Source: an uncultured Methanosarcinales archaeon (GTDB lineage: Archaea > Nanobdellota > Nanobdellia > Woesearchaeales > GW2011-AR15). From it: a DNA stretch of 64,000 bases. The notes beneath the pieces were generated by a model. That model made no database searches, was not told the origin of the DNA, and saw nothing but the letters and a program-made list of their open reading frames with translations. A program made the position numbers and the translations under genes. Below, in pieces: positions 5,461 to 32,775 of the stretch. Within the stretch, counting starts at the first letter, position 1. Each line of letters begins with the position of its first letter. The stretch lies in contig CAYRXW010000003.1 of NCBI GenBank assembly GCA_964428335.1, positions 150,368 through 214,367 on the forward strand. Direction: 5' to 3'.

Positions 5461-6602
5461 AAGGAAACATACTTATGATTGGCCTTGTAGTTGTTTTCTT
5501 CCTTGTCGTGCTTGTAGGGCTTTATATACAGGTGACAAATAAGGCAAATGATTTTGAGGAAGCAATAGGAAGCCACCAGTCAAAGGTCCTGAATGCATAT
5601 AAAGATGGAGAAAAAGCCCTCTTTTTCATAGAGCTTGCAGGCAGGAATTCTTTTTATGAATCCTTTGAAAAACTAGATACAGAATGCGGAAATTATGAGG
5701 GAGTGCCTCTGTTAAATTCCGAAAGCAAAAGTTGCATGAATGAGATATTTGAAGCGACAGTTGATGGAACAAACAAAAAAACAGAAAAGTTCACAGAACA
5801 AATGCCAAAAATTGATTATGACATAAAAATAGGTGACAAAGGAATATTTTTTTTCGCAAAGAATTCCCTGAGAATGGACATTGGCGGAAAATATAATTTT
5901 GAAATTTCAAAAGCACCAGAATTCAAGAAAACAGAGCCTGAAACTCCGGAACCATCAGTGCCAATAGAAGAGCCCATTGAGAGTCCTGTCCAGCCACCTA
6001 CAACGCCTGTTCAGGGTGGAAGCGGAGGCAAATGTGGATTTATTGCAGATTATGCAAAGCAGTATGTTGCTGCACAATGTCCTTATTCCCTTAGCCTAAT
6101 TTATGGCGCAACTCCACAGACATGCCACGAGAAACCTTTGACATGTGCAACTTTTGTAGCTTCATTATATTACTATACTTTTGGTGAATGGATATATGGC
6201 AATGGAAATACAAAATGTACAGATGGAAAGGTTGTTCCTATGGGAAATAATCCAAACAGCCTTGCTTTCATTAACAAAAACACAGGAAAATCAATTTCAA
6301 CATCGCTTCAGCCAGGAGATATATTCCAGGCTGACCTTATCTCATCAAGAACCGGCCAGCCTACTGCATGGGGACACACAGGAATCTATGTTGGCAGGGG
6401 ATACCTAGACTTAGGTTCATATGATGGTCCATATTGTTTCAGGAGCTATAAGCCGGATGAAAAAGGCAACCTTATATTTGCGCATTCTTACGGATGGCAG
6501 GACTATGGGCAGCCAGGTGTATGTTTTTCAGATTATAAGAACCTATTTGGTGGCGGACAGATAATACCGACAAACTTCTGCAGGTACAGGGGATGCGCAT
6601 GA
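5457..6602 (+). CDS. Pilin-like N-terminus fused to an NlpC/P60-CHAP superfamily (papain-fold) cysteine peptidase domain
   Basis: N-terminus MKG/NILMIGLVVVFFLVVLVGLYI. C-terminal domain has Cys in LTCATFVASLYYYTF and the downstream motif QPGDIFQADLISS...WGHTGIYVGRG, which matches the NlpC/P60 pattern (PGD...hH.GIY.G). Confidence 0.55.
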   Translation: MKGNILMIGLVVVFFLVVLVGLYIQVTNKANDFEEAIGSHQSKVLNAYKDGEKALFFIELAGRNSFYESFEKLDTECGNYEGVPLLNSESKSCMNEIFEATVDGTNKKTEKFTEQMPKIDYDIKIGDKGIFFFAKNSLRMDIGGKYNFEISKAPEFKKTEPETPEPSVPIEEPIESPVQPPTTPVQGGSGGKCGFIADYAKQYVAAQCPYSLSLIYGATPQTCHEKPLTCATFVASLYYYTFGEWIYGNGNTKCTDGKVVPMGNNPNSLAFINKNTGKSISTSLQPGDIFQADLISSRTGQPTAWGHTGIYVGRGYLDLGSYDGPYCFRSYKPDEKGNLIFAHSYGWQDYGQPGVCFSDYKNLFGGGQIIPTNFCRYRGCA

Positions 6603-9600
6603 AAAAAATAATTATACTTTTTTTCCTGCTTCTGCCATTTGCGCATGCTGAACTGCTTGTAAACTTTGGTGAAAGAATAAGTTCAATAGACCAGATTGAG
6701 AAATCCACTTATTATTATGAGTACTACCTAAGCAGTCCACAGGAATCAGAGTATATTTTTGTATTTCATTATAATGATGAAAAAATCAATAAAAATTCTA
6801 CAAACAGCATGTTCATACTTACAGATATAGATGCAAGCCGGCTTTATAGGATAGACTTACTGAAAAATAACGAGCTTAGGGATTCGGTGCTCACTAACTT
6901 CTGCAACCATGATTCAATATGTGAAAACAACCTTACAAAAGGGATATTTGAAAATGAGCTTACATGTTCAGACTGTGAAAAAAGCGCTAAAGATAACTTC
7001 TGCAATATTGAAGATGATGATATCTGCGACCCTGACTGCATAGGATATAATTATGATGAATTTCCTGGAACGTGCCTTGAAGATTATTTCAGGGCAAATG
7101 AATGCTCAAACTACTGCAGTGAAAATGAGATATGCACATCTGATGTTTTTGTATCAGAATTGGGGTTATGCTGTACAGGAGAATGTGTAAAGAACACTGA
7201 AGATTTTTGCGGGGAATACCTTAATGGGACAATATGCATGGGAAATGAAGCATGTAGCGGGCAGGAAGTTGTTTTCGGGACAGAAGGGAAAACATGCTGC
7301 TACGGAGGAACCTGTGAAGAAGATGAAAATGTTGATTACTATAATATAACTTTGATCAATGATACAGCGGAAACAAAGAACCTAAACATTTATTTTATCA
7401 TTGGGATATTTGCATCCCTTGTAATACTTGTCATCGGGCTTCACTATAAGAACCTGAATATTGTGATTGCATCCAGCCTTTTTTTCATACTTATGCTTAG
7501 CTTTCTTCTTTTGGACGCAAGGAATATAATTACAGGAAAGGCAACCTCCAATACCTTGACACAGGAAGAAATAAACCTCATCATGACCACCCCTTCAGTA
7601 TTCAATTACGGGGGGCAAAGTAATACAAACTTATTTTTGGCATTAAAAAGCATTTCATCAGAATTCAGGAAAAGGAATGTCGAATTTTCCGAGAATCTTA
7701 TGATTGCAACAATAACAACGATGGAGAAGGAAGTGGGTGGGTATGGTTTTTTACCAGTAGAAGAATATGGAGACTATTGTGCAGGACCAACTTCAAAATT
7801 TACTATTGCAGGAAAACACAGGAAAACGCCTTATGATGGAGGATGTGACTACAAAGGAAGAGGGTACATGCAGGTAACTCACTATAGCGGATATCTGAAA
7901 TACTGTGGTCCTGATTGTGTTACAAGAAGTACAGCAGGAAACATACTGGATGAATGCAAATGCAAAGGACTTGCATATTGCTCAGTAAAGGACGAAGCAA
8001 AGTGTCCACCAAATAAAGCACTTAGACCTGAATATGCAGGAAGAATTTTTTCTAATTTTTACATTGGAAAAGGATTACTTGGTCTTGTGGATTCAAAAAA
8101 CTATGTTGAAATAGGTACAAGAATTAACGGCGTTAAGTCTTATGGTATTGATTTTGAGAAAAAAGCTAATGCTAAACATAGTTCATATAATAAAGACCAG
8201 GTAAGAAAACTGCTTGCATATTTTAATCAGAGAAGCATTACAACTCCAAGTGCTCCAACTACACCAACAACTCCAAGCACAGGAACAACTGGAGAAGAAC
8301 CTGTTTCAGTAGATACAACTGTCACAACAGATGTCGCTGATGAGATAATTTCAGGGGATAAGCTTGGATATTATTACTTAAATCCTTCATTCAAAATTGA
8401 GACAGAGCTTTCTTTCATTCCAACTTTGGTTGAGGAAGCAAAAGATTATGAAACATTGAAATCAACACTGGAAAAATATGATAAGGAGGAATTATGGATA
8501 ATCGGCGGATGCGGTGAAATAAAGAAAATTGATGAAGAATCAACAAAATTCATTTTCTGCGTTGATGACGGTGTTAAGAAGATAGAATTTGCACTTGACC
8601 TGGAAGGGAAGATTGAACCAAAGATTACTGAAGCAGAACGGCAGGAAACAGCAGAAGCAGGAACAGGGACACAGACAGAAACAGGAACGCAAACAGAGAC
8701 AAACAGCCAAGAAGAGACAGAAGAAGAAATAACAGAAGGGTTTTCTCAATTATTTTCAGGAATACAATATGGGAAATTTTCAGCAGCAGGACCAATTGTA
8801 TATCATGTCACAAAGATTGATCTGAGGAACCAAAATATAAGGTTTTTAGTGACACCGCAAAACCAGCTTGGGCAACCTACTTCTTCGTTTTTCGCTGCAA
8901 ACAGGCCACAGGTTGCAATTAACGGAGACGAATTCAGGACACTTGGAAGCCCTAAAGGTGTTGCTGTTTCAAACGGGAATGTTTATTCTTCATCAGCAGA
9001 GACAGGAGAACAGACAGTATTTATTTCAACAAAGAACGAAGTAAGCATAGGGAACAAGATTCCACAGGGGACATTAAATGCTGTATCTGGCTCACACGTG
9101 TTCTTAGAGAATGGAGTAGTTCCTGAAAGGATTAGATCATGCTCAAAAATCCCATATTGCAATGATATGCATCCAAGGACTTCAATAGGGGTAAGCCAGG
9201 ATGGAAATACCATGATAATAATCACAGTTGATGGCAGGAGAAGCGACTATAGCATAGGAATCAAGCTCCATAGCAACAATCCATCAGATTTGACCTTGGC
9301 AGAACTTCATCTTGCATTTGGTTCATACAACGCAATAAATCTTGATGGGGGAGGTTCAACAACTCTTGTCATGGAAGGAAAAGGGACAGTAAATAACCCA
9401 ACAGATCCACCTGAAGAATACCTTAATGATGCAGCAAAGAAAGCAGAGCTTATCTACTATGACGGCTTTTTGGTGCACCCAAACAAAAATATATTCAGGG
9501 AGAGGTATGTCTCAAACCATCTTGGGATTTATGCAGCAAAAGTAGCAGCAGCACCTGAAAAAACAAATCAGGAAAGCTGCCTAAGCGATGACATGGATAT

Positions 9601-10174
9601 TGTGCTTTTTGGAGACAGCATTACAGAAGGCCATGCAACATATGGGAACAAGGCATTAAGTTCAGAATTTAACAGTAGGATTTCAAAAGATGTAACCATG
9701 TTTTATACAACAGGACTGGGAGGAAAGAGAGCAGATAGCCCAGAATCAATTGATTCATACAATAAGTTCATCCTTCCAAAAAAGCCTGATATTGTGCTTT
9801 TATGGTTCGGAATGAATTCACATGGTTTTGAAGCGTCGCATAAAACCCAGTATATAAATTATATTAATGACATGAAAAAAAAAGGGATAATCCCTGTAAT
9901 CCTTACGACTTCACCTGCATGCGATGCGCTTACAGAAAAAGACATATCTTATCTTGAGGATATCCAGGCAATAAATAAGGATCTGGCGAAGACAGCAGGA
10001 GTTTACCTGATTGATGTCAAAACCAAGCTTGAAAACGAGATGAATGGCAAGTGTAAAGACTATTTCATGGATGCATATCATATGAACCCACAGGCACATT
10101 CAATAGTTGCAAAAATAGTTGTTGACCAGTTCAGTGCATGGAAAAAGGCAAAAACAGGACCTTATTCCTGCTGA
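6593..10174 (+). CDS. Giant multi-domain membrane-anchored hydrolase: Cys-rich N-terminal region, 2 TM helices, GH19-chitinase/lysozyme-like domain, Thr/Pro linker, phosphodiester-glycosidase (NAGPA/DUF2233-like) domain, C-terminal SGNH/GDSL hydrolase
   Basis: Signal peptide MRMKKIIILFFLLLPFAHA. GH19 signature: EKEVGGYGF...GDYCAG...YKGRGYMQVTHYSGY (compare HETTGG and YYGRGPIQLSWNYNY). NAGPA-like: VAINGDEF...INLDGGGSTTLV. SGNH: VLFGDSITEG ... DAYHMNPQAH. Confidence 0.65.
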   Translation: MRMKKIIILFFLLLPFAHAELLVNFGERISSIDQIEKSTYYYEYYLSSPQESEYIFVFHYNDEKINKNSTNSMFILTDIDASRLYRIDLLKNNELRDSVLTNFCNHDSICENNLTKGIFENELTCSDCEKSAKDNFCNIEDDDICDPDCIGYNYDEFPGTCLEDYFRANECSNYCSENEICTSDVFVSELGLCCTGECVKNTEDFCGEYLNGTICMGNEACSGQEVVFGTEGKTCCYGGTCEEDENVDYYNITLINDTAETKNLNIYFIIGIFASLVILVIGLHYKNLNIVIASSLFFILMLSFLLLDARNIITGKATSNTLTQEEINLIMTTPSVFNYGGQSNTNLFLALKSISSEFRKRNVEFSENLMIATITTMEKEVGGYGFLPVEEYGDYCAGPTSKFTIAGKHRKTPYDGGCDYKGRGYMQVTHYSGYLKYCGPDCVTRSTAGNILDECKCKGLAYCSVKDEAKCPPNKALRPEYAGRIFSNFYIGKGLLGLVDSKNYVEIGTRINGVKSYGIDFEKKANAKHSSYNKDQVRKLLAYFNQRSITTPSAPTTPTTPSTGTTGEEPVSVDTTVTTDVADEIISGDKLGYYYLNPSFKIETELSFIPTLVEEAKDYETLKSTLEKYDKEELWIIGGCGEIKKIDEESTKFIFCVDDGVKKIEFALDLEGKIEPKITEAERQETAEAGTGTQTETGTQTETNSQEETEEEITEGFSQLFSGIQYGKFSAAGPIVYHVTKIDLRNQNIRFLVTPQNQLGQPTSSFFAANRPQVAINGDEFRTLGSPKGVAVSNGNVYSSSAETGEQTVFISTKNEVSIGNKIPQGTLNAVSGSHVFLENGVVPERIRSCSKIPYCNDMHPRTSIGVSQDGNTMIIITVDGRRSDYSIGIKLHSNNPSDLTLAELHLAFGSYNAINLDGGGSTTLVMEGKGTVNNPTDPPEEYLNDAAKKAELIYYDGFLVHPNKNIFRERYVSNHLGIYAAKVAAAPEKTNQESCLSDDMDIVLFGDSITEGHATYGNKALSSEFNSRISKDVTMFYTTGLGGKRADSPESIDSYNKFILPKKPDIVLLWFGMNSHGFEASHKTQYINYINDMKKKGIIPVILTTSPACDALTEKDISYLEDIQAINKDLAKTAGVYLIDVKTKLENEMNGKCKDYFMDAYHMNPQAHSIVAKIVVDQFSAWKKAKTGPYSC

Positions 10175-10246: not shown

Positions 10247-11356
10247 ATGGGGTGTTATAACTTGATAAAGATACCAAAAGAAATGCTTATTGAAAAGATA
10301 AAAGAGAAAGGGCTTACTGAAGCGCAGATAAAATCCAAAGTTAAGGATAAACTAGACCAGCTTTCAGGCCTGATTTCAGAGGAAGGGGCTCTACATATAA
10401 TTGCCAATGAGCTTGGAGTGAAGGTCATGGATGAAGGCAAGCTGAAACTGAAGAATGTGCTTTCAGGCATGAGAAGCCTTGACATCACGGCTAAAGTCCT
10501 TAAGATATATGAAGTAAGGGAATTCAACAAGGGAGATAAGAAAGGAAAGGTAGGAAATTTCCTGATAGGCGATGAGACAGGGGTTATGAGAGTAGTTGCC
10601 TGGAATGACAAAGCTGATTTACTTACCAGCTTAAAGGAAGGGACAACAGTAAAGGTTACAGCTGCTTATACAAAGGATAACCAGGGGAAGACTGAGATAC
10701 ACCTTGGAGACAAGTCACAGGTCACTATAAGCGATGAGGAGATAAAGGTTGCCAGCAAGGAAAATGTAAGGAAGAATATCTCAGATTTAAAGGAAAATGA
10801 TGATAATGTTGAAATCATGGGAACAATTGTCCAGGTTTTTGACCCAAGGTTCTGGCCAACTGATCCAACAACAGGAAAAAAGGCTGTTGAAAAAGAAGGG
10901 GAATATTTCTATGAAGACAAGCCAATAACGCCTGATTTTTCATATGTGACAAACATCTTCCTGGATGATGGCACAGAGAACATAAGGGTAGTATTATGGA
11001 AAGCCCAGACAGAAAAACTTTTTGAGATGACCCATGAAGAGATAAAATCAAAAAGGATTGCCGGGTTTGAAGACAAGAAAAATGATCTTTTGGGAAAGAT
11101 AGTGAAATTTTCAGGAAAGACAAGCAAGAACCAGATGTTTGATAGGCTTGAATTCATTGCACAGAATGTTGATATGAACCCAAATCCAGAAGAAGAGATT
11201 GAAAGGCTAAAGGCAATGGAAGCAAAGGAATCAAAGGAAGAAAAAAAGGAAGAGAAAGAAGAAGAGCTTCCAAAGCCAAAAGAGAAAAAACCTGATGTTA
11301 AAACATCTGATGAACTAAATATAGATGATATAGAAGGATTAGAGGATTTGGAATAA
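10247..11356 (+). CDS. rpa: Replication protein A-like ssDNA-binding protein (OB-fold) with KE-rich acidic C-terminal tail
   Basis: N-terminal region (LSGLISEEGALHIIANELGV) is typical of archaeal RPA. Repeated OB-fold-like segments (GKVGNFLIGDETG.MRVVAWND; ENIRVVLWKAQ). Acidic C-terminus DDIEGLEDLE. Confidence 0.75.
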   Translation: MGCYNLIKIPKEMLIEKIKEKGLTEAQIKSKVKDKLDQLSGLISEEGALHIIANELGVKVMDEGKLKLKNVLSGMRSLDITAKVLKIYEVREFNKGDKKGKVGNFLIGDETGVMRVVAWNDKADLLTSLKEGTTVKVTAAYTKDNQGKTEIHLGDKSQVTISDEEIKVASKENVRKNISDLKENDDNVEIMGTIVQVFDPRFWPTDPTTGKKAVEKEGEYFYEDKPITPDFSYVTNIFLDDGTENIRVVLWKAQTEKLFEMTHEEIKSKRIAGFEDKKNDLLGKIVKFSGKTSKNQMFDRLEFIAQNVDMNPNPEEEIERLKAMEAKESKEEKKEEKEEELPKPKEKKPDVKTSDELNIDDIEGLEDLE

Positions 11357-11358
11357 TC

Positions 11359-11910
11359 CTAAACTAACATTTCCTGATATTTCTTTCCTTTTTTTAACAT
11401 TGCAGGCCTTTTATATCCTATAGGATTTGAATAATATAACTGAGGGAAATGGTTGTATTTTTCATTAGGGATTATAATGTTTTTTTCCAGTATAGAAAGA
11501 GTTACTTTAGAATCATCTTTTCCATGGCTTCCTATAGTAAAATCACTACTTACTGAAGAAACCAAAATCCTGGATATATCATCTTTTGGAATGTTTTTAT
11601 CAATTATATCCAATGCTTCAATTAAGGAAGTTCTGGCAATATAGAATTCAACATGGCTTGGCTTATAGCCAAATTTGCTAAAAAAAGCAAGGTCACCAGA
11701 TTTTTTAAATTCATCATGCACAAATATCCCAAACCTATCAAACAATTCATAAGTATGCAGAAAAGGCAGATTTATTCCTGCTTCATTTAATATGAAATTC
11801 ACATAGCCTGAACATGAAAATCCTTCAGTTGCATTTCCGGGTTTTTCTTTTGAGTATCTTTTGCAGGGATAGTTTAGATATTTGAGAGCTATAGGGATTA
11901 ATTGGGACAT
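11359..11910 (-). CDS. NlpC/P60 family cysteine peptidase-like protein
   Basis: EGFSCSGYVNFILNEAG matches the D/E-CSG-h-V catalytic Cys motif. Later His in KPSHVEFYIA. Confidence 0.5.
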   Translation of the reverse strand: MSQLIPIALKYLNYPCKRYSKEKPGNATEGFSCSGYVNFILNEAGINLPFLHTYELFDRFGIFVHDEFKKSGDLAFFSKFGYKPSHVEFYIARTSLIEALDIIDKNIPKDDISRILVSSVSSDFTIGSHGKDDSKVTLSILEKNIIIPNEKYNHFPQLYYSNPIGYKRPAMLKKGKKYQEMLV

Positions 11911-12061
11911 GCAGGTGAAATGAAGATTGAGGTTTAAGAAGGGTTTGACATAAAATATGATTGGAGGTAGATGACAGGAGAGTGGACGTATGACGCAGGA
12001 GCAATTTTAGTTGCGCATGTAAATCATAAAAAACATAAAGAAAGCCTAAATACTATTTAAT

Positions 12062-13042
12062 ATGCAGAGTATTATGAATTACATTAAAAATCCAGTAAGA
12101 CAAGGAGTATACAAAGCTAAAATACACTTTAAGTCAAAAGAATTACTTCTAAGTTTCATCAATTTTCAGAAAAATTGCAGAAAAAAATTTGAGGAACTAA
12201 AAAAGAAGCCAACAATAGGTTTTTACCAAGCAGGGATGTATGAAGAGTATCTAAAAAAAGAAAAATATGAAAACTGGTTATTAGAATCCATATTAGATAA
12301 TTTATTTATGCTTTTAAAGTTTAATAAGGAAGGTGTTTCTAAAGAACTTGAAAATGAATATAATAAGATTTGGCAAGATCTTGAAACAGGTAACTCAGCT
12401 TATTGCAATTTTGGAGATGATAATTACCTTTTAAAATTCAATGATGCCTTTTCAACAGAAATTAAACAACTTGAAACAAAGGATTTTATATTTTTTATAT
12501 ATTCTATAAAAGAATCAACTTTATTGAGTTTTGTAAATATAATAACTCTTGCTTTTGGCGAATCATCATTTAAACTTATTTACCAAATAAATAGTCATGT
12601 AAAAGAAGATGTAATATTTCCTTATATATCTGCAGTTTTTCTATGTTTAGATAATAAATCAGAGTTTATTGAAGATTATTTGATTAATGATTTAGAGGAA
12701 ATTAAAAACAACTATGGACTTGGTTTTTATAGAATGAGCATTCTGTTTATAGGTATTATCTTAGAAGAGATATTAGCTAGAACCTATGAAAATATATTGA
12801 ATGAGGAAGTTCCAAAGGATGCAGGAATTGGATTTTTAATTAAAGCCTTATTTGAAAAAAAAGAGAAAAAATTAGATATACCCAAAGACATCTATTCTAA
12901 TTTATATGATGATGCAAGAGAACTTAGAAATAGCGCAGTTCATCGAGGTAAAAAAGATTTTTCAAGATATGACGTAAAAATAATGTTAAAAGGAGTATTT
13001 AGGCTATACTTATTTTTAAAAGAGAATCAAGTGCGCAACTAA
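12062..13042 (+). CDS. Hypothetical protein with a C-terminal Rx4H (HEPN-type) motif; sits in an AT-richer island
   Basis: C-terminal ~110 aa are helical and carry LYDDARELRNSAVHRGKKDF, which fits the HEPN RN-x3-H motif. Codon usage is markedly more AT-rich than the flanking radA/RPA. Confidence 0.45.
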   Translation: MQSIMNYIKNPVRQGVYKAKIHFKSKELLLSFINFQKNCRKKFEELKKKPTIGFYQAGMYEEYLKKEKYENWLLESILDNLFMLLKFNKEGVSKELENEYNKIWQDLETGNSAYCNFGDDNYLLKFNDAFSTEIKQLETKDFIFFIYSIKESTLLSFVNIITLAFGESSFKLIYQINSHVKEDVIFPYISAVFLCLDNKSEFIEDYLINDLEEIKNNYGLGFYRMSILFIGIILEEILARTYENILNEEVPKDAGIGFLIKALFEKKEKKLDIPKDIYSNLYDDARELRNSAVHRGKKDFSRYDVKIMLKGVFRLYLFLKENQVRN

Positions 13043-13133
13043 AATTGTTGAACATAACGATTCGTCGGGCAGACGACGTGGGAAGACAATTTCTTAAATC
13101 CAAATATTTTAACGAATAGTAAGCCTATAAATT

Positions 13134-13835
13134 TTAATTATTGAGCCATTTACTATAAGCTAACTTATCAATTAATAAGTGAATTGTTGGTGGCCTATTA
13201 TCCCAAGTAATTTTTAAAACATTAGCGTGTTCGACAACCAATAAATTTTCATATTCATCATCAATAATTATTTTATCAATAGTATACTCTCTAAAAGTTA
13301 CACGATCTTCAATAGTCTTTGTTGAATAGAATGCAAAATTCAGAAACATAACAATTAATAGAATATAAAAAAACTCGTTACCTAGACCAGAATTAAATAC
13401 ACCTACACCGGCGACTATTGACAAAAAACCCAACACAAAATTTATAACAGTGAAAGCGGACTTGATTTTTTTTTGTTCCTGCAAAATATTGAGATTTCTT
13501 AATTTTTTATTGTAATCATGCCTAAGTTTTATCGCACGAACTTTTTCATTTAAGTTAGATAACATTTCTACAAAAACCATATGTCTCTTTATTTCGCTAT
13601 TGTCTTGAATATTGTCGCTGTAACCAAAACTGTTTTTATCAATTTTAACAATTTGCTTGCCCTTTAAATTCTTTAGTTTAAGTGTCTTGGTGTCATAAAA
13701 CACATATTTTGGAACAATTTTGGCACTTTTGTCGTTTATTATAACTAAATCACCCATAAGGCAATAGTCTTTGCCTATTTTATGTATAAGATTTTTATGA
13801 GATATAATTTCCAAGCCTTTGATAATTACAGTCAT
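13134..13835 (-). CDS. Hypothetical two-TM membrane protein (island gene)
   Basis: Central hydrophobic pair FTVINFVLGFLSIVAGVGVF / FFYILLIVMFLNFAFY. No known motif. Confidence 0.4.
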   Translation of the reverse strand: MTVIIKGLEIISHKNLIHKIGKDYCLMGDLVIINDKSAKIVPKYVFYDTKTLKLKNLKGKQIVKIDKNSFGYSDNIQDNSEIKRHMVFVEMLSNLNEKVRAIKLRHDYNKKLRNLNILQEQKKIKSAFTVINFVLGFLSIVAGVGVFNSGLGNEFFYILLIVMFLNFAFYSTKTIEDRVTFREYTIDKIIIDDEYENLLVVEHANVLKITWDNRPPTIHLLIDKLAYSKWLNN

Positions 13836-13912
13836 AATAATTACATTATTTTAAAGTATATATTTTTTATTAAAAGTAGAAAACCTACGGTTTTCCACAC
13901 CTTTCCCTAAAT

Positions 13913-14953
13913 TCAAAATAATAAGAAATTATTCCTATATTTTTCAGCGAACAAATCAATTTCTCTATTAAGGATATTCAATTGTCTATCTAAATATTTA
14001 TAATTAATAATATAAATAAACCCTGGGTGAATATAGTTTAACCGAGATAATATTGATGACAATTTTTTATTTGAATCTATCTCAAGAAGTAACTTACTTT
14101 CTTCATTATTTAGTTTCAGAGGTCCAGTCTTATTAAGTTCATCATTAAATTTATTAAAATATTCAAAACCAACATTGTAAACAGCAACTGCTTCTTGATT
14201 ATTACATAGTTTTAGGGTATCGTTTTCTTTTTCTATTTCTTCTAAAGTAATATTTTCTTTTAAGGTATATAAATCAGCTGTTGTAACGATAATTGGAAGT
14301 GTCAATGTACTTAACAATGTGGAAAATTTTGGCTGTTTATATTTTAACAAATATAATACATCAAATAAACATAAATCTCTATAAAGTCGATGCGTTACAA
14401 TAGATCCACAAACAGTTTGAAAGATTGCTCGAATGATAGAATTTGGATTTGCACCCTTTTCAAATATCTCTATCCCTTTATTAACTTCAGGACATGATAA
14501 GATATTTTTTTGGAGCAATTTCAAATTTAAGTTATCATCCTTTTTTTTCTTATCTAAAAGTGATAAGACAGGCGATTCAAATTCTGACAAAATTAGATTT
14601 CCCCCAGAAAAATTTCTAAATCCACTAGGTTCTTCTGGAAACCTTATAAAAAACCAACTATGATTTTTGGTTTTATATTTACATTCAATCACAAGTTGGA
14701 TGCTCAACTCAAGTCTATCAATTAGTATTAGGTTTTTATCTGCATAGATATCTGTTGAAAATAACTTATTTTCCCGATTGTAATGGACTTCTCCTTCGTC
14801 ATTAAAACCAATATTTTGAATCTTTTTAACGACAGAAGATTCAAGAGGAATACCAGATTTCAAAACAAACTCTTTAAAAGATGGATTTACCATAAATTTA
14901 GAATAATTCCTTAATTTATAAAATAAGGCATGGTTTGTCATGCTAATTAACAA
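13913..14953 (-). CDS. Hypothetical protein with possible N-terminal PD-(D/E)xK nuclease-like motif (island gene)
   Basis: TDIYADKNLILIDRLELSIQLVIECKYK has the pattern hhhD ... 10-12 aa ... hhE-x-K characteristic of restriction-endonuclease-fold nucleases. This is speculative from the motif alone. Confidence 0.35.
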   Translation of the reverse strand: MLISMTNHALFYKLRNYSKFMVNPSFKEFVLKSGIPLESSVVKKIQNIGFNDEGEVHYNRENKLFSTDIYADKNLILIDRLELSIQLVIECKYKTKNHSWFFIRFPEEPSGFRNFSGGNLILSEFESPVLSLLDKKKKDDNLNLKLLQKNILSCPEVNKGIEIFEKGANPNSIIRAIFQTVCGSIVTHRLYRDLCLFDVLYLLKYKQPKFSTLLSTLTLPIIVTTADLYTLKENITLEEIEKENDTLKLCNNQEAVAVYNVGFEYFNKFNDELNKTGPLKLNNEESKLLLEIDSNKKLSSILSRLNYIHPGFIYIINYKYLDRQLNILNREIDLFAEKYRNNFLLF

Positions 14954-15204
14954 CTAACGACTACGAACTTGTCTCCCACAAGACGAGATATATTAATAGA
15001 TGTCGCTAACGCTCCTTAGATGTTGCCCAACGAGGTTATTCGGTGGAACAGTAGTTATCTCTAATTCACATTCTCCCACACTGGACACACTGGACATCCC
15101 TGCGTGAGATATTTAAAGGAAGTCAATTTATCATATCCTAACCTGTTTGAAAGAATAGGCCCTCCCGGTTCTGGGAACTAATAATTCCATAATATAAGGA
15201 ACCG

Positions 15205-15513
15205 TTGAAACAAGACCCGAAAGGAATGGAGGCATTAAAAATGCAAACAACAAAACAAACAAAAGAAATAAAGGCAAACACGCCTGAAAAAAAGTTTAGG
15301 GCAGGAACTATAACTGCTACAGTCTGGAAAAACCAGGCAGAAAAAAACGGAAAGGCGTTTGAATACCGCACCGTCTCATTTGAACGAAATTACACAGATG
15401 AGAAAGGTGAATGGAACACAACAAATTCTTTGAGGCTTAATGACTTACCTAAAGCATCATTGGTACTAACAAAAGCTTACGAATACCTTGCAATGAACGG
15501 AGTTGAAGAATAA
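15205..15513 (+). CDS. Small conserved protein, possibly PC4/YdbC-like ssDNA-binding; translationally coupled to radA
   Basis: Stop codon overlaps the radA ATG (TAATG). Core GTITATVWKN...EYRTVSFERNY.DEKGEWNTTNSLRLNDL resembles the PC4/YdbC pattern (W..E.R.W....KGITLS.EE). True start may be the internal Met at 15241. Confidence 0.4.
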   Translation: MKQDPKGMEALKMQTTKQTKEIKANTPEKKFRAGTITATVWKNQAEKNGKAFEYRTVSFERNYTDEKGEWNTTNSLRLNDLPKASLVLTKAYEYLAMNGVEE

Positions 15514-16496
15514 TGGCTAAAGAAAAAGAAACTAAGGAAACAAAAGAAGAAAACATGGAAAATGACGCAATGACTGTCATGGATTTACCAGGAGTAGGAC
15601 CTGCAACAGCAGAAAAACTTGCAATTGCAGGCTATGAGGATTTAATGGCAATAGCTGTCGCAACACCAGGGGAGCTTATAGATGCTTCAGGTGTAACAGA
15701 TGCAACAGCAAAAAAGATAATTGCCGCAGCAAGGGCTGCAATGAGGATGGGCTTTGAATCAGGGATAGATATCCTGAAAAAAAGGCAGAATGTGATGAAA
15801 ATACCTCTTGGTTCGAAAGCATTAAATGAGCTTTTGGGAGGAGGATTTGAATCAGGTGCCATAACCGAGGCATTTGGGGAATTTGGGTCAGGAAAGACCC
15901 AGATTGCGCATTCATTGGCTGTTGAGATACAGAAAATGGATCCTGATGCTTTCGCAGTATTCATCGATACTGAAAACACCTTCAGGCCAGAAAGGATTGT
16001 AGAACTTGCAAAAGGCGCTGGCCTTGACCCTGAAAAAGTTCTTGGAAATATAAAAGTTGCAAGGGCATTTAATTCAGACCACCAGATGCTTTTGGCTGAA
16101 AAGATAAACGACCTGATAACAAAACAGGGCATAAAAGTCAAAGTTGTTGTCGTTGATTCATTGACAGCGCATTTCAGGGCAGAATTCATCGGCCGTGGAA
16201 CATTGGCAGAAAGGCAGCAGAAGCTAAACAAGCACATGCACGAACTTATGAAAGTTGCAGACACACATAATATTGTTGTCTATGTGACAAACCAAGTAAT
16301 GTCAAAGCCTGATGTGTTCTTTGGGGACCCAACCCAGGCAATAGGAGGCCATGTTGTAGCGCATGCATCAACATTTAGGCTATACCTAAGGAAGAGTAAG
16401 AAGAATTCAAGGGTTGCAAAACTTATTGATTCTCCAAACCTGCCAGACGGCGAGGCTGCTTTCATTGTAGAAACGCCAGGAATAAAAGATATTTAA
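15513..16496 (+). CDS. radA: DNA repair and recombination protein RadA
   Basis: N-terminal HhH (LPGVGPATAEKLAIAGY). Walker A GEFGSGKTQIAH. Walker B VVVVDSLTAHFR. Full RecA/Rad51 core of 327 aa. Confidence 0.95.
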   Translation: MAKEKETKETKEENMENDAMTVMDLPGVGPATAEKLAIAGYEDLMAIAVATPGELIDASGVTDATAKKIIAAARAAMRMGFESGIDILKKRQNVMKIPLGSKALNELLGGGFESGAITEAFGEFGSGKTQIAHSLAVEIQKMDPDAFAVFIDTENTFRPERIVELAKGAGLDPEKVLGNIKVARAFNSDHQMLLAEKINDLITKQGIKVKVVVVDSLTAHFRAEFIGRGTLAERQQKLNKHMHELMKVADTHNIVVYVTNQVMSKPDVFFGDPTQAIGGHVVAHASTFRLYLRKSKKNSRVAKLIDSPNLPDGEAAFIVETPGIKDI

Positions 16497-27767: not shown

Positions 27768-28103
27768 ATGATGCCAGGAATGAATCCAAGGGATATGGAA
27801 AAAGCCATGAAACGCTTAGGTATAAAGCAGCATGAGATCGAAGCTATAGCAGTCATAATCAGGACAAAAACTGAAGACATTATCATAAGGAATCCGTCAG
27901 TACAGAAGATTGATATGATGGGAAACAATTCTTACCAGGTTTCAGGAACTGAAGAGATAAGGAAAATCGAGCCTGAAATAAGTGAGGAAGACATAAAAAC
28001 AGTTATGGAGCAGGCAAAAGTTTCAAAAGAGAGAGCAACCAAAGCGTTAAAAGAGAGCAATGGAGAACTGGCAGCAGCCATAATTTCACTGCAAAATGCA
28101 TGA
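27768..28103 (+). CDS. nac: Nascent polypeptide-associated complex protein (alpha-NAC, NAC + UBA domains)
   Basis: MNPRDMEKAMKRLGIKQHEIEAIAVIIRTKTEDIIIRNPSVQKIDMMG ... C-terminal UBA-like EQAKVSKERATKALKESNGELAAAIISL. Confidence 0.85.
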   Translation: MMPGMNPRDMEKAMKRLGIKQHEIEAIAVIIRTKTEDIIIRNPSVQKIDMMGNNSYQVSGTEEIRKIEPEISEEDIKTVMEQAKVSKERATKALKESNGELAAAIISLQNA

Positions 28104-28497
28104 TTCAAAAAAACATATAGATCTTGCTGAAAACCTGGTTTTAAGAACCTATACATTGACAGGAAGCCCAAAAATCTTAAAAATAGCGATGAATAACCTA
28201 TACACAGGTCTTAAGTTCCTGATGAAAGAAGCCACAAAATCAGAAACAGAAGATTTTTCAGAACTGGTTGATTTATCAGAAAAGGAGTTTAAGAAAAGAG
28301 GTATAAATAAAAACTTCATAACCTATTTAAGGGACATCCACAGCTTAAAGATGCACCAAAAAGAGTCAAACATTGAATTTTCAAGAAAAGATAAGTATAT
28401 ATTTGCATCTGAATCATATGATTTGGAAGTATTAAGCGAAAAAGAAGTGAAAGATTATATACTTAAAGCAAAACTACTATTAAACCTGGTGATATAA
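28096..28497 (+). CDS. Hypothetical helical protein (paralogous to next gene)
   Basis: Shared N-terminal pattern with the downstream ORF (IDLAENLVLRTYTLTG vs IDHLIYVTLKYTRT). Confidence 0.4.
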   Translation: MHDSKKHIDLAENLVLRTYTLTGSPKILKIAMNNLYTGLKFLMKEATKSETEDFSELVDLSEKEFKKRGINKNFITYLRDIHSLKMHQKESNIEFSRKDKYIFASESYDLEVLSEKEVKDYILKAKLLLNLVI

Positions 28498-28950: not shown

Positions 28951-29727
28951 ATGACAAAGTTCATTGTAATTGCTTCAAGTAAAGGAGGAGTAGGAAAAAC
29001 TACTACTGCCATAAATCTAGGGACTGCCCTTACTTTGTTTGGAAAAGATGTTGTTGTTGTTGACTGCAACCTGAACACGCCAAATGTTTCTTTGTATCTT
29101 GGAGCTGCTTCTGTCCCTGTGACTTTGCATGATGTATTGAATAAAAACAAGAAAATAACAGATGCAATGTATATGCACAGCCACGGCCTGAAGATAATAC
29201 CTGCAAGCAATGCTTTTAAGGACAGGCATAAGATAGATTATGAAAAGCTTTCAAGAACCCTTAAGGAACTATCAGGAAAAACAGATTATGTGATCATTGA
29301 CAGTGCTGCCGGTGTTGGAGAGGGAGCGATAACCAGCATGAAAATGGCTGATGAACTTTTGGTTGTCTCAACCCCCGAACTTCCTGCAGTTGCAGATGCG
29401 CTAAAGACAATGAAGCTTGCAAAAGAGCATGGAAAGAATGTAAGGGGAATAATACTTACAAGGGCTTATGAAGATGAACTGGAACTTAGCAGGAAAGATG
29501 TTGAAGCAATGCTTGAGACTAAAGTTATAGGGATAATACCTGAAGACGAGACAATGAGGGAAGCAGTAAAAATGAAAAACCCTGTAATGCATACTCACCC
29601 AAATTCCCCAGCATCACAGGGATATAAGAAACTTGCCTCTGAACTAATAGGGGAAAAATATGTGGAAAGCATTGAAAAAGAGGAATCAGGTATGGATACC
29701 TTCATGAAAAAACTGGGGCTGAAATGA
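28951..29727 (+). CDS. minD: MinD/ParA-family P-loop ATPase (archaeal MinD-like)
   Basis: Deviant Walker A IVIASSKGGVGKTTTAINLG. D-I-D-S-A-A-G switch region. Confidence 0.85.
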   Translation: MTKFIVIASSKGGVGKTTTAINLGTALTLFGKDVVVVDCNLNTPNVSLYLGAASVPVTLHDVLNKNKKITDAMYMHSHGLKIIPASNAFKDRHKIDYEKLSRTLKELSGKTDYVIIDSAAGVGEGAITSMKMADELLVVSTPELPAVADALKTMKLAKEHGKNVRGIILTRAYEDELELSRKDVEAMLETKVIGIIPEDETMREAVKMKNPVMHTHPNSPASQGYKKLASELIGEKYVESIEKEESGMDTFMKKLGLK

Positions 29728-30125
29728 TGGAACTTATAGAATGGGCATCTCATTATATTGACTATGCAAATTCCTTTAAAAAAGACCTTCTAAGCAAAAA
29801 AAATGAAGGGAATAAAATTGAATGCGAATACAAGGCAAAAGGAAAAGTTACTTATGTCATTGCAGAACATCTTGATGAAAATACAGTAAAAGAATCATTA
29901 AATGGAAACATTGTAATTGTGACATTAAACAAAAAAGAAAATGCAAAATATATGCTTGAAAAATGGCAGGACTACATAAAAAATAAGGCACTAAAGATTA
30001 TGTTTTCAAACCCAACATTAAACCTGCAATGGACTGTCATACCTTATCTTCACAATAATTTTACAGATCCAGCAGCCTTAAAGACAGGGATAAAAACATT
30101 ATTTGAAAGCATCCCGGAAGCCTGA
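29724..30125 (+). CDS. Hypothetical protein, translationally coupled to MinD-like ATPase
   Basis: ATGA overlap with the minD stop. No motif recognised. Confidence 0.4.
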   Translation: MMELIEWASHYIDYANSFKKDLLSKKNEGNKIECEYKAKGKVTYVIAEHLDENTVKESLNGNIVIVTLNKKENAKYMLEKWQDYIKNKALKIMFSNPTLNLQWTVIPYLHNNFTDPAALKTGIKTLFESIPEA

Positions 30126-32455: not shown

Positions 32456-32775
32456 AGTGTAGAGCAGCTATAAGCCACCTTTTGTACGCCTTCTCACTTT
32501 CGCAAGAACAGGCATCCTTGACATTCAACTAAGCCTCTCTAAGGAGTTGCACAAGCCAGGACTCACCGTTTCATCCGTTCCATCTACGACGTCAGGAGGT
32601 TAACTCTCTTTTGTCGCCAAAAGATTCGCATCCATCATCCCATTAATAGATGGTGGTCTCGTTTCTGAGTGGTTGCCCTCAGTTTCCCGTTAGCTGGCTT
32701 TGGCCAGTGGCTGCATTAGTGGGTGGACTTTCCTCAATGCTTACGCACCGAAAGTCAAGCACTGCCCTACAACCA
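32456..32775 (-). ncRNA. rnpB: RNase P RNA (archaeal type A-like)
   Basis: Minus strand contains GAGGAAAGUCCAC (universal CR-I GGAAAGUCC), GGAUGAAACGGUG (CR-II-like), and GGCUUAUAG near the 3' end (CR-V GGCUUA). The 5' GUAGGGCAG can pair with 3' CUGCUCUAC as P1. The region is GC-rich relative to the genome, and the two ORF-track ORFs over it are incoherent. Confidence 0.75.

Follow-up and report, generated by a model that had tools for sequence, protein, structure and literature searches.

A 64,000-nucleotide stretch from an uncultured archaeon of the Woesearchaeales (contig CAYRXW010000003.1, positions 150,368 to 214,367 of the forward strand; hereafter the window, to which all coordinates refer) carries three AT-rich genes, designated A, B, and C, between an RPA-like gene and radA. 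An initial annotation had grouped the three into one candidate defence module. The reading favoured here is that the RPA-radA spot is probably a variable insertion site, with ~3.7 kb of foreign AT-rich DNA that contains separate accessory genes rather than one system. This reading is carried by the composition of the segment, by its absence from related genomes, by motif conservation in A and C, by a HEPN fold match for A, and by the lack of co-occurrence of the gene families elsewhere. An open reading frame (ORF) scan of the window found four ORFs in the RPA-radA interval: an NlpC/P60 gene, A, B, and C. The features of the interval and its flanks are as follows.

10247-11356, plus strand: gene for the RPA-like OB-fold protein (Pfam tRNA_anti-codon, E 2.2e-12)
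11357-15078, unstranded: variable gap or insertion, from the RPA stop codon to the conserved p102-radA promoter motif; content absent in related Woesearchaeota
11359-11910, minus strand: gene for an NlpC/P60-family peptidase, 183 aa, GC content (guanine plus cytosine) 0.31 (Pfam NLPC_P60, E 7.6e-8; NCBIfam NlpC/P60 matches)
12002-12017, unstranded: left arm of a perfect 16-bp inverted repeat (CAATTTTAGTTGCGCA), 45 nt 5' of the gene A ATG, at the point where GC drops
12062-13042, plus strand: gene A, 326 aa; N-terminal alpha/beta domain (~aa 1-180) and C-terminal HEPN domain, DUF4145-like (~aa 185-326); predicted RNase
12926-12943, plus strand: codons R289-N-S-A-V-H294, predicted Rx4H catalytic motif of the HEPN domain (ORF and alignment)
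13032-13047, unstranded: right arm of the 16-bp inverted repeat (TGCGCAACTAAAATTG), overlapping the gene A stop codon
13134-13835, minus strand: gene B, 233 aa, orphan; central two-helix transmembrane (TM) hairpin at nt 13329-13454 (hydropathy scan)
13876-13898, minus strand: 10-bp terminator-like hairpin followed by TTTT, directly 3' of the gene C stop codon and 5' of an A/T-rich promoter-like stretch for B
13913-14893, minus strand: gene C, 326 aa from ATG 14893 (the ORF reaches TTG 14953); N-terminal PD-(D/E)xK-type core and C-terminal alpha/beta domain; predicted DNase
14678-14752, minus strand: codons D68 to K92 (numbered in the 346-aa frame), D...E-x-K, putative metal-binding/catalytic motif of C (ORF, alignment, model)
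15205-15513, plus strand: 102-aa gene (p102), directly upstream of and abutting radA
15513-16496, plus strand: radA (Pfam Rad51, E 2.5e-83)

Pfam agrees with the flanks named by the initial annotation (RPA-like OB-fold protein and RadA), and the ORFs and motifs were found where it had placed them (LRNSAVHRG in A, FSTD...LVIECKY in C, two hydrophobic helices in B). Two points of its layout needed correction. C and B had been described as a divergently oriented pair; they are co-directional on the minus strand, and A and B are convergent. C had been given 346 aa, counted from TTG 14953; its start is most likely ATG 14893 (326 aa, equal to the database protein P0001), because the database copy and the family alignment place it there.

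Composition and synteny

The AT-richness ascribed to the three-gene stretch was borne out by windowed counts. GC of 1-kb windows at 12-15 kb is 0.255-0.278 vs. ~0.36 elsewhere in the window. Of its 63 non-overlapping ORF-genes, those with the lowest GC are A (0.258, z -3.1), C (0.267, z -2.8), and B (0.279, z -2.5), and GC at third codon positions is ~0.19-0.26 in A, B, and C vs. a mean of 0.33. In 100-nt windows the edges are sharp, with GC falling from 0.42 to 0.25 at ~12000 and rising from 0.24 to 0.44 at ~14950; a bump of 0.34-0.36 lies at 13000-13150, between A and B.

For comparison, 80 related loci were gathered via RadA relatives, the best RadA match being 80% identical. The 102-aa gene lies directly upstream of radA in 76 of these 80 DPANN loci, and in 35 of those RPA is also upstream on the same strand (RPA-p102-radA synteny). 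Across the 35 syntenic loci the RPA-p102 gap measures 160-4899 bp; in five relatives (L015, L016, L022, L041, L063) it is free of ORFs and 160-325 bp long. Homologues of NlpC/P60, A, B, and C are absent from the gap in all 35 (E<1e-5), the NlpC/P60 gene being a further accessory gene within the same gap. Two marks of a horizontally acquired islet are present, namely deviant composition and absence at a conserved syntenic site in related genomes, and they support the horizontal acquisition suggested by the initial annotation.

In the relatives the gap is occupied mostly by ordinary genes, among them a YdjM membrane protein (21 loci), assorted transporters, and metabolic enzymes, with rarer instances of one TIR, one LAGLIDADG, and one Hjc-related endonuclease gene. 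The site is therefore a general variable spot and no dedicated defence island.

The right edge of the variable segment is fixed at 15079 by the start of a conserved promoter block (15079-15117), which was seen when the short gaps were aligned with the window and which consists of the tandem CACTGGACA CACTGGACA and, 13 nt later, TATTTAAA. The block is kept in five Woesearchaeota relatives despite otherwise diverged surroundings, and ACTGGACA was found at no other site in the 64 kb. For the radA operon the block offers a candidate binding site of a regulator together with a TATA box. The 102-aa protein itself gave no significant Pfam or PDB match, and its earlier label "PC4-like" was not confirmed; it is probably a conserved RadA partner in this lineage.

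Gene A, a divergent HEPN protein

A word-indexed search with the gene A protein returned the protein itself alone, and exhaustive phmmer against 1.84 billion representatives yielded 25 relatives, mostly full-length and 320-380 aa long. In the family alignment E235, E243, G257, and R289 are invariant and P251, L259, V293, H294, and R295 near-invariant. The HEPN Rx4-6H motif is present, with R289 invariant and H294 kept in at least 90% of the 26 members; the family consensus reads N-x-A-R-I-x-A-V-H-R-G, and the window protein carries RNSAVH (within LRNSAVHRG). A further conserved motif, NPxxxGV[YF], lies in the N-terminal part.

DUF4145, which has been placed in the HEPN superfamily (Anantharaman et al., PMC3710099), is matched by four of the 26 (best E 6e-5), the HEPN family PF05168 by four (1.5e-3), and HepT-like and HEPN_Swt1 by single members. 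On sequence grounds, A is a divergent family related to DUF4145 and outside the Pfam family as currently defined. The AlphaFold model (pLDDT 91, pTM 0.89) has an alpha/beta part at ~aa 1-180, then an all-helical domain (~188-323). Foldseek against PDB aligned the protein with the HEPN structures 2hsb (probability 0.99, TM-target 0.69, 119 columns) and 4nqf (0.98), and further with 2q00, Csm6', and AbiA, at whole-query E-values that are not significant (0.65-1.9). The HEPN assignment first made from the motif is upheld by its conservation, by the relatives' DUF4145/HEPN matches, and by the HEPN structures. We take A to be a divergent member of the HEPN superfamily, predicted to be an RNase, in which the N-terminal domain is new. 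This N-terminal domain had no Pfam, PADLOC, PHROG, or PDB match; no family member matched any Abi Pfam model, and no relatives of A were found in phage records or IMG/VR.

A homologues are solitary. The closest, P0019 (40% identity), sits in another genome, flanked by NAC and PolB, and forms an AT-rich single-gene islet there (0.257 vs. 0.38). P0022 adjoins an N6/N4 methyltransferase and a HATPase_c_3 protein, and P0027 lies near RHH/PIN genes.

The perfect 16-bp inverted repeat (12002-12017/13032-13047) brackets A alone, upstream region included, at the GC drop, and was reached by none of 300 shuffles. It is the sole mobility-type feature at the gap. The 16-mer occurs nowhere else in the window; in IMG/VR it was found singly 13 times, within a rough, uncomputed chance expectation. 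No target-site duplication was seen at the arms. At the locus of the closest homologue (L012, 5948-5958/~6975-6985) an 11-nt core recurs in the same geometry (12 of 300 shuffles), and more distant A-family loci have no significant flanking repeat. Cassette ends, a recombination site, and an operator are candidate roles. A role in mRNA 5'-3' pairing was thought unlikely because the left arm lies 5' of an A/T-rich promoter-like box. Both the window gene and its closest homologue are solitary AT-rich genes at unrelated sites, the latter with the weaker repeat.

Gene C, a putative PD-(D/E)xK nuclease

For gene C the word-indexed search gave 15 homologues (E 7e-52 to 1e-6), to which 28 metagenome loci were added; a homologue on a Leptospira interrogans plasmid was linked by tblastn (2e-3) and hhalign (probability 99.1%, E 6e-19). 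Invariant in the family are L31-K-x-G-I-P-L-E38, R60, F65, D68, E90-C-K92-Y, W100, F102, Q179, and I221...T-T-A226 (PIIVTTA). D68, E90, and K92 are unchanged in 16 sequences, and the homologue from Leptospira has them as well; E38 and Q179 are likewise invariant.

In the structural model (pLDDT 84.8, pTM 0.85) E38 lies in a helix, D68 opens strand 69-78, and E90 and K92 close strand 81-92; the next strand is 99-103, Q179 sits in the long helix 171-205, and PIIVTTA in strand 212-224. The order alpha-beta-beta-beta-alpha-beta is canonical for PD-(D/E)xK nucleases and is followed by an extra alpha/beta domain, and the conserved acidic residue and (D/E)xK stand on consecutive beta strands. About one third of the top 50 PDB matches are PD-(D/E)xK proteins (R2 restriction-like endonuclease, Hjc, AF1548, SPARDA, MspJI, EcoRV, BsmI), and BFVD matches have the same bias (Hjc-like viral resolvases, Vsr/DUF559, Cas4, and entries with a PD-(D/E)xK annotation). 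The assignment of C as a PD-(D/E)xK nuclease is well motivated by alignment and model, and we consider it likely. A PDB sequence-profile search with the family gave nothing beyond a spurious "IECKF..W.F" match to an mRNA-capping enzyme. C had no relatives in 2.9 million viral contigs (IMG/VR) or in 50,697 phage records.

The settings of C homologues suggest a stand-alone gene with a role in conflict or in mobile elements. One clade lies inside a type I restriction-modification (R-M) operon in the order hsdM ... C homologue, hsdS, SLFN/AlbA-Fic, hsdR, with overlapping start and stop codons. Other homologues lie beside DUF2290 and a UvrD-like helicase, beside NurA and HerA, or between a VirB4/TraC ATPase and a TrbC pilin on an archaeal conjugative-type element that also carries hsdR; another lies near an integrase in a Methanomassiliicoccales metagenome-assembled genome, and the Leptospira plasmid homologue adjoins an FRG protein and Rpn nucleases. 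Pooled neighbours matched PADLOC models for MTase_I, MADS, DUF2290/helicase, and HerA, and the Pfam families PIN, HTH_3, Ymh, relaxase, TraG, and DDE transposase. Contig L127 stems from the same genome as the window (100% identical over 1693 bp) and gives no independent context.

Two of these settings deserve separate description. The R-M-embedded clade is represented at L009 (169-4482) and L007 (1-6186), between hsdM and hsdS; the homologue is preceded by an uncharacterised 270-aa protein (L009, 2387-3199), and an SLFN/AlbA-HATPase-Fic gene lies between hsdS and hsdR. This compound R-M-linked defence locus merits a study of its own. In the Methanomassiliicoccales genome (L004, 5160-8018) a 210-aa protein upstream of the C homologue has a borderline HEPN match (PF05168, E 9.5e-4), and a downstream 281-aa protein has a weak MauJ match and an RHRLHH stretch. 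The flanking proteins of L004 are not homologous to A, and the locus may be another case in which the C family stands beside HEPN-like genes.

Gene B, an orphan membrane protein

Hydropathy scanning of gene B gave two hydrophobic helices (aa 128-146 and 151-169). A word-indexed search of 5.8 billion proteins returned the query alone, and nothing was found in plasmids, phages, PDB, Pfam, NCBIfam, or PHROGs. By a rough estimate, frames that stay open by chance in 28%-GC DNA are much shorter than its 233 codons. The 10-bp hairpin with TTTT parts C from B, ahead of the A/T-rich stretch and the B ATG. B is best explained as a lineage-specific two-TM orphan transcribed separately from C; beyond the two TM helices nothing backs the term "effector-like" once attached to it.

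One system or separate genes

Co-occurrence was scanned across every locus with a C or an A homologue (~28 independent C loci and four A loci), using ORFs in all six frames. No B homologue was present in any of them, and the A and C families were never together outside the window. The neighbours of the 28 C loci clustered solely between duplicate contigs, with no recurring partner family. PADLOC-DB v2, searched for known and candidate systems, returned nothing significant for A, none for C, and for B (residues 8-90) just PDC-M47B, a component of a candidate system, which matched weakly (E 0.0012, 16.7 bits). The PADLOC check proposed by the initial annotation gave no known or candidate system.

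It is improbable that the three genes make up a single uncharacterised defence system whose parts, a HEPN RNase (A), a membrane effector (B), and a PD-(D/E)xK nuclease (C), act together. The genes are compact, adjacent, and alike in their anomalous composition, and their predicted activities are typical of defence; the Methanomassiliicoccales C homologue is flanked by a weak HEPN protein and a MauJ-like protein, and small TM proteins follow a few C homologues (L005, L101, L123). A non-homologous TM partner of C was rejected, however, since TM proteins make up ~4 of 15 co-directional downstream genes, near the background share of membrane proteins. The families do not co-occur elsewhere, no neighbour recurs, B is an orphan, and the closest A homologue is solitary. 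The hairpin separates C from B, the GC bump and the inverted repeat isolate A, and A is convergent to B and C and so not in the same operon; the single module originally proposed does not hold up.

A decayed remnant of an integrated plasmid or virus, the genes of which serve the element (as addiction toxin, in entry exclusion, or in processing of transfer DNA), is somewhat less doubtful, though still unlikely. C homologues lie between VirB4/TraC ATPase and TrbC pilin, on the Leptospira plasmid, and near relaxase, TraG, and transposase genes; the low GC of the segment is foreign, and HEPN proteins are frequent toxins of mobile elements (PMC3710099). The four gap ORFs, however, include no integrase, replication, transfer, or capsid gene (Pfam, PHROGs), neither tRNA nor flanking direct repeats were found, the viral contigs and phage records named above hold no homologue, and the segment has a composite look, with the A cassette apart from B and C. 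Very improbable is that these are host housekeeping or repair factors recruited beside RPA and RadA, with C a repair or recombination nuclease and A acting in RNA processing. Their position between recombination genes and the Holliday-junction resolvases among the weak fold matches of C would suit such a role, whereas absence in 35 of 35 syntenic relatives, strongly deviant composition, the great rarity and patchiness of both families across archaea and bacteria, and the unrelated gap contents of relatives speak against it.

Several points weigh against a foreign islet of separate accessory genes with the functions predicted here. Mobility hallmarks are lacking: the 64-kb window has no tRNA and no convincing flanking direct repeats, and no integrase or transposase was found among the four gap ORFs (Pfam, NCBIfam, PHROGs). 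The syntenic relatives are distant (RadA at most 80% identical), and absence could partly reflect general decay of gene order. The window protein A scores 12.2 bits against Pfam DUF4145 (PF13643; E 0.2), below the 23.1-bit gathering threshold. For C the best Foldseek match against PDB has E 0.06 and a probability of at most 0.6, with all matches local and none significant, and no Pfam or PADLOC model matches the family; the nuclease fold consequently rests on the motif, the topology, and the enrichment among weak matches. Of the initial PD-(D/E)xK claim the conserved D...ExK motif is upheld. Many neighbours of C homologues are metabolic genes, and because of these and of the mostly ordinary genes in the relatives' gaps the defence context is suggestive, not strong. 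Of the defence flavour initially given to the locus, the C-family neighbourhoods elsewhere (R-M operon, DUF2290 with helicase, MADS, HerA, PIN, conjugative elements, plasmids) are retained, and the gap itself is not. Finally, the lack of co-occurrence leaves room for a functional interaction that arose in this lineage alone.

On balance, separate accessory genes at a variable insertion site remain the reading that we hold to be probable. The sole unusual loose end is the AT-rich single-gene HEPN cassette bracketed by an inverted repeat. We regard it as a long shot that A with its promoter and inverted repeat (12002-13047) is a new self-contained mobile cassette hopping between intergenic sites of DPANN housekeeping genes, or else that A, B, and C were newly combined in this lineage into a working RNase/DNase/membrane system.

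Neighbouring features of the window

Adjoining the RPA gene, 6593-10174 on the plus strand encodes a 1193-aa Cys-rich protein with an N-terminal signal-like segment; the relatives found 5' of RPA at two related loci are just weak ones (E 4e-8 and 6e-11). The protein may act at the surface or in host interaction of this episymbiont-type archaeon, and with the NlpC/P60 gene it hints at accessory functions acting on the cell wall close to the islet. At 32459-32770 on the minus strand lies an archaeal RNase P RNA (Rfam RF00373, 138 bits, full length); this RNA and the RadA relatives mark the organism as a member of the Woesearchaeota (DPANN). Two low-GC 133-aa ORFs (28096-28497 and 29724-30125) were considered as paralogues and rejected on comparison.

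Proposed functions and significance

Enzymatic activities, triggers, and a defence role we infer as follows. By analogy with DUF4145/HEPN proteins such as RAZR, A would be a stand-alone RNase of abortive-infection type, in which the N-terminal alpha/beta domain would sense or gate and two C-terminal HEPN domains would dimerise into a composite Rx4H site (R289, H294); on detection of an invader it would cleave single-stranded RNA, leading to translation arrest or dormancy. C would act as a stand-alone metal-dependent DNase, with E38, D68, and E90 coordinating Mg2+ and K92 serving as general base or positioning water for DNA cleavage, and its C-terminal domain would add specificity or regulation. 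Carried on plasmids and conjugative elements and in R-M operons, C would most likely cut foreign DNA or act in conflicts between mobile elements.

The genomes of DPANN archaea are tiny, and little is known of their viruses and immune repertoires. The locus supplies two rare families that no profile library describes: the A family, a predicted HEPN/DUF4145-like RNase domain joined to a new N-terminal domain, and the C family, a predicted restriction-endonuclease-fold protein of archaea, bacteria, R-M operons, and conjugative elements. Either family can be put to the test as a candidate for immunity by a single gene or for functions in mobile-element conflict. The locus also cautions that adjacency and shared odd composition in a variable hotspot do not make a system; it leaves current concepts of defence unchanged, and its value is incremental.

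Comparison with known systems

RAZR (PD-T7-4) is a single-gene abortive-infection nuclease for single-stranded RNA with a zinc ribbon and DUF4145, for which a conserved Arg and His are required (PMC13017515). A likewise combines, in one polypeptide, an N-terminal non-catalytic domain with a C-terminal divergent HEPN domain that has conserved Arg and His, and, like RAZR and other single-gene DUF4145/HEPN abortive-infection RNases, it is a solitary gene in a variable region (PMC13017515, PMC3710099). It differs from RAZR in its ~180-aa N-terminal alpha/beta fold, which has isolated Cys residues and no CxxC pairs and hence no Cys4 zinc ribbon; in its Rx4H motif spacing; in its score below the DUF4145 threshold; and in its host, a DPANN archaeon. 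PADLOC gave no PD-T7-4 match for A. The Abi-type HEPN proteins (AbiJ, AbiD/F, AbiU2) share with A an N-terminal sensor or adaptor, a C-terminal HEPN toxin, stand-alone occurrence, and patchy distribution (PMC3710099), but the N-terminal domain of A is not AbiJ-NTD or DpnII-NTD as far as Pfam shows.

The archaeal Holliday-junction resolvase Hjc and the minimal PD-(D/E)xK nucleases like AF1548 provide the best local structural matches of the C core (1ob8, 25% identity over 63 columns; 1y88, probability 0.6), at E ~0.7-4, which is not significant. C differs from them in its threefold size, its extra domains, its lack of conservation in relatives, and its mobile distribution.

Shedu SduA and Hachiman HamA are stand-alone defence nucleases of restriction-endonuclease fold, and PrrC/RloC-type genes sit within type I R-M operons, their products being RNases and not PD-(D/E)xK proteins. 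Compared with these named systems by description only, C has neither detectable sequence similarity nor significant structural similarity to them. C has its core at the N-terminus, followed by a ~115-aa C-terminal domain, and no helicase partner. What C has in common with such stand-alone or R-M-embedded genes of restriction-endonuclease fold is the E...D...ExK...Q signature on its alpha-beta-beta-beta-alpha-beta core, in some members helicase or HerA defence genes as neighbours, and, in one clade, a place within an R-M operon.

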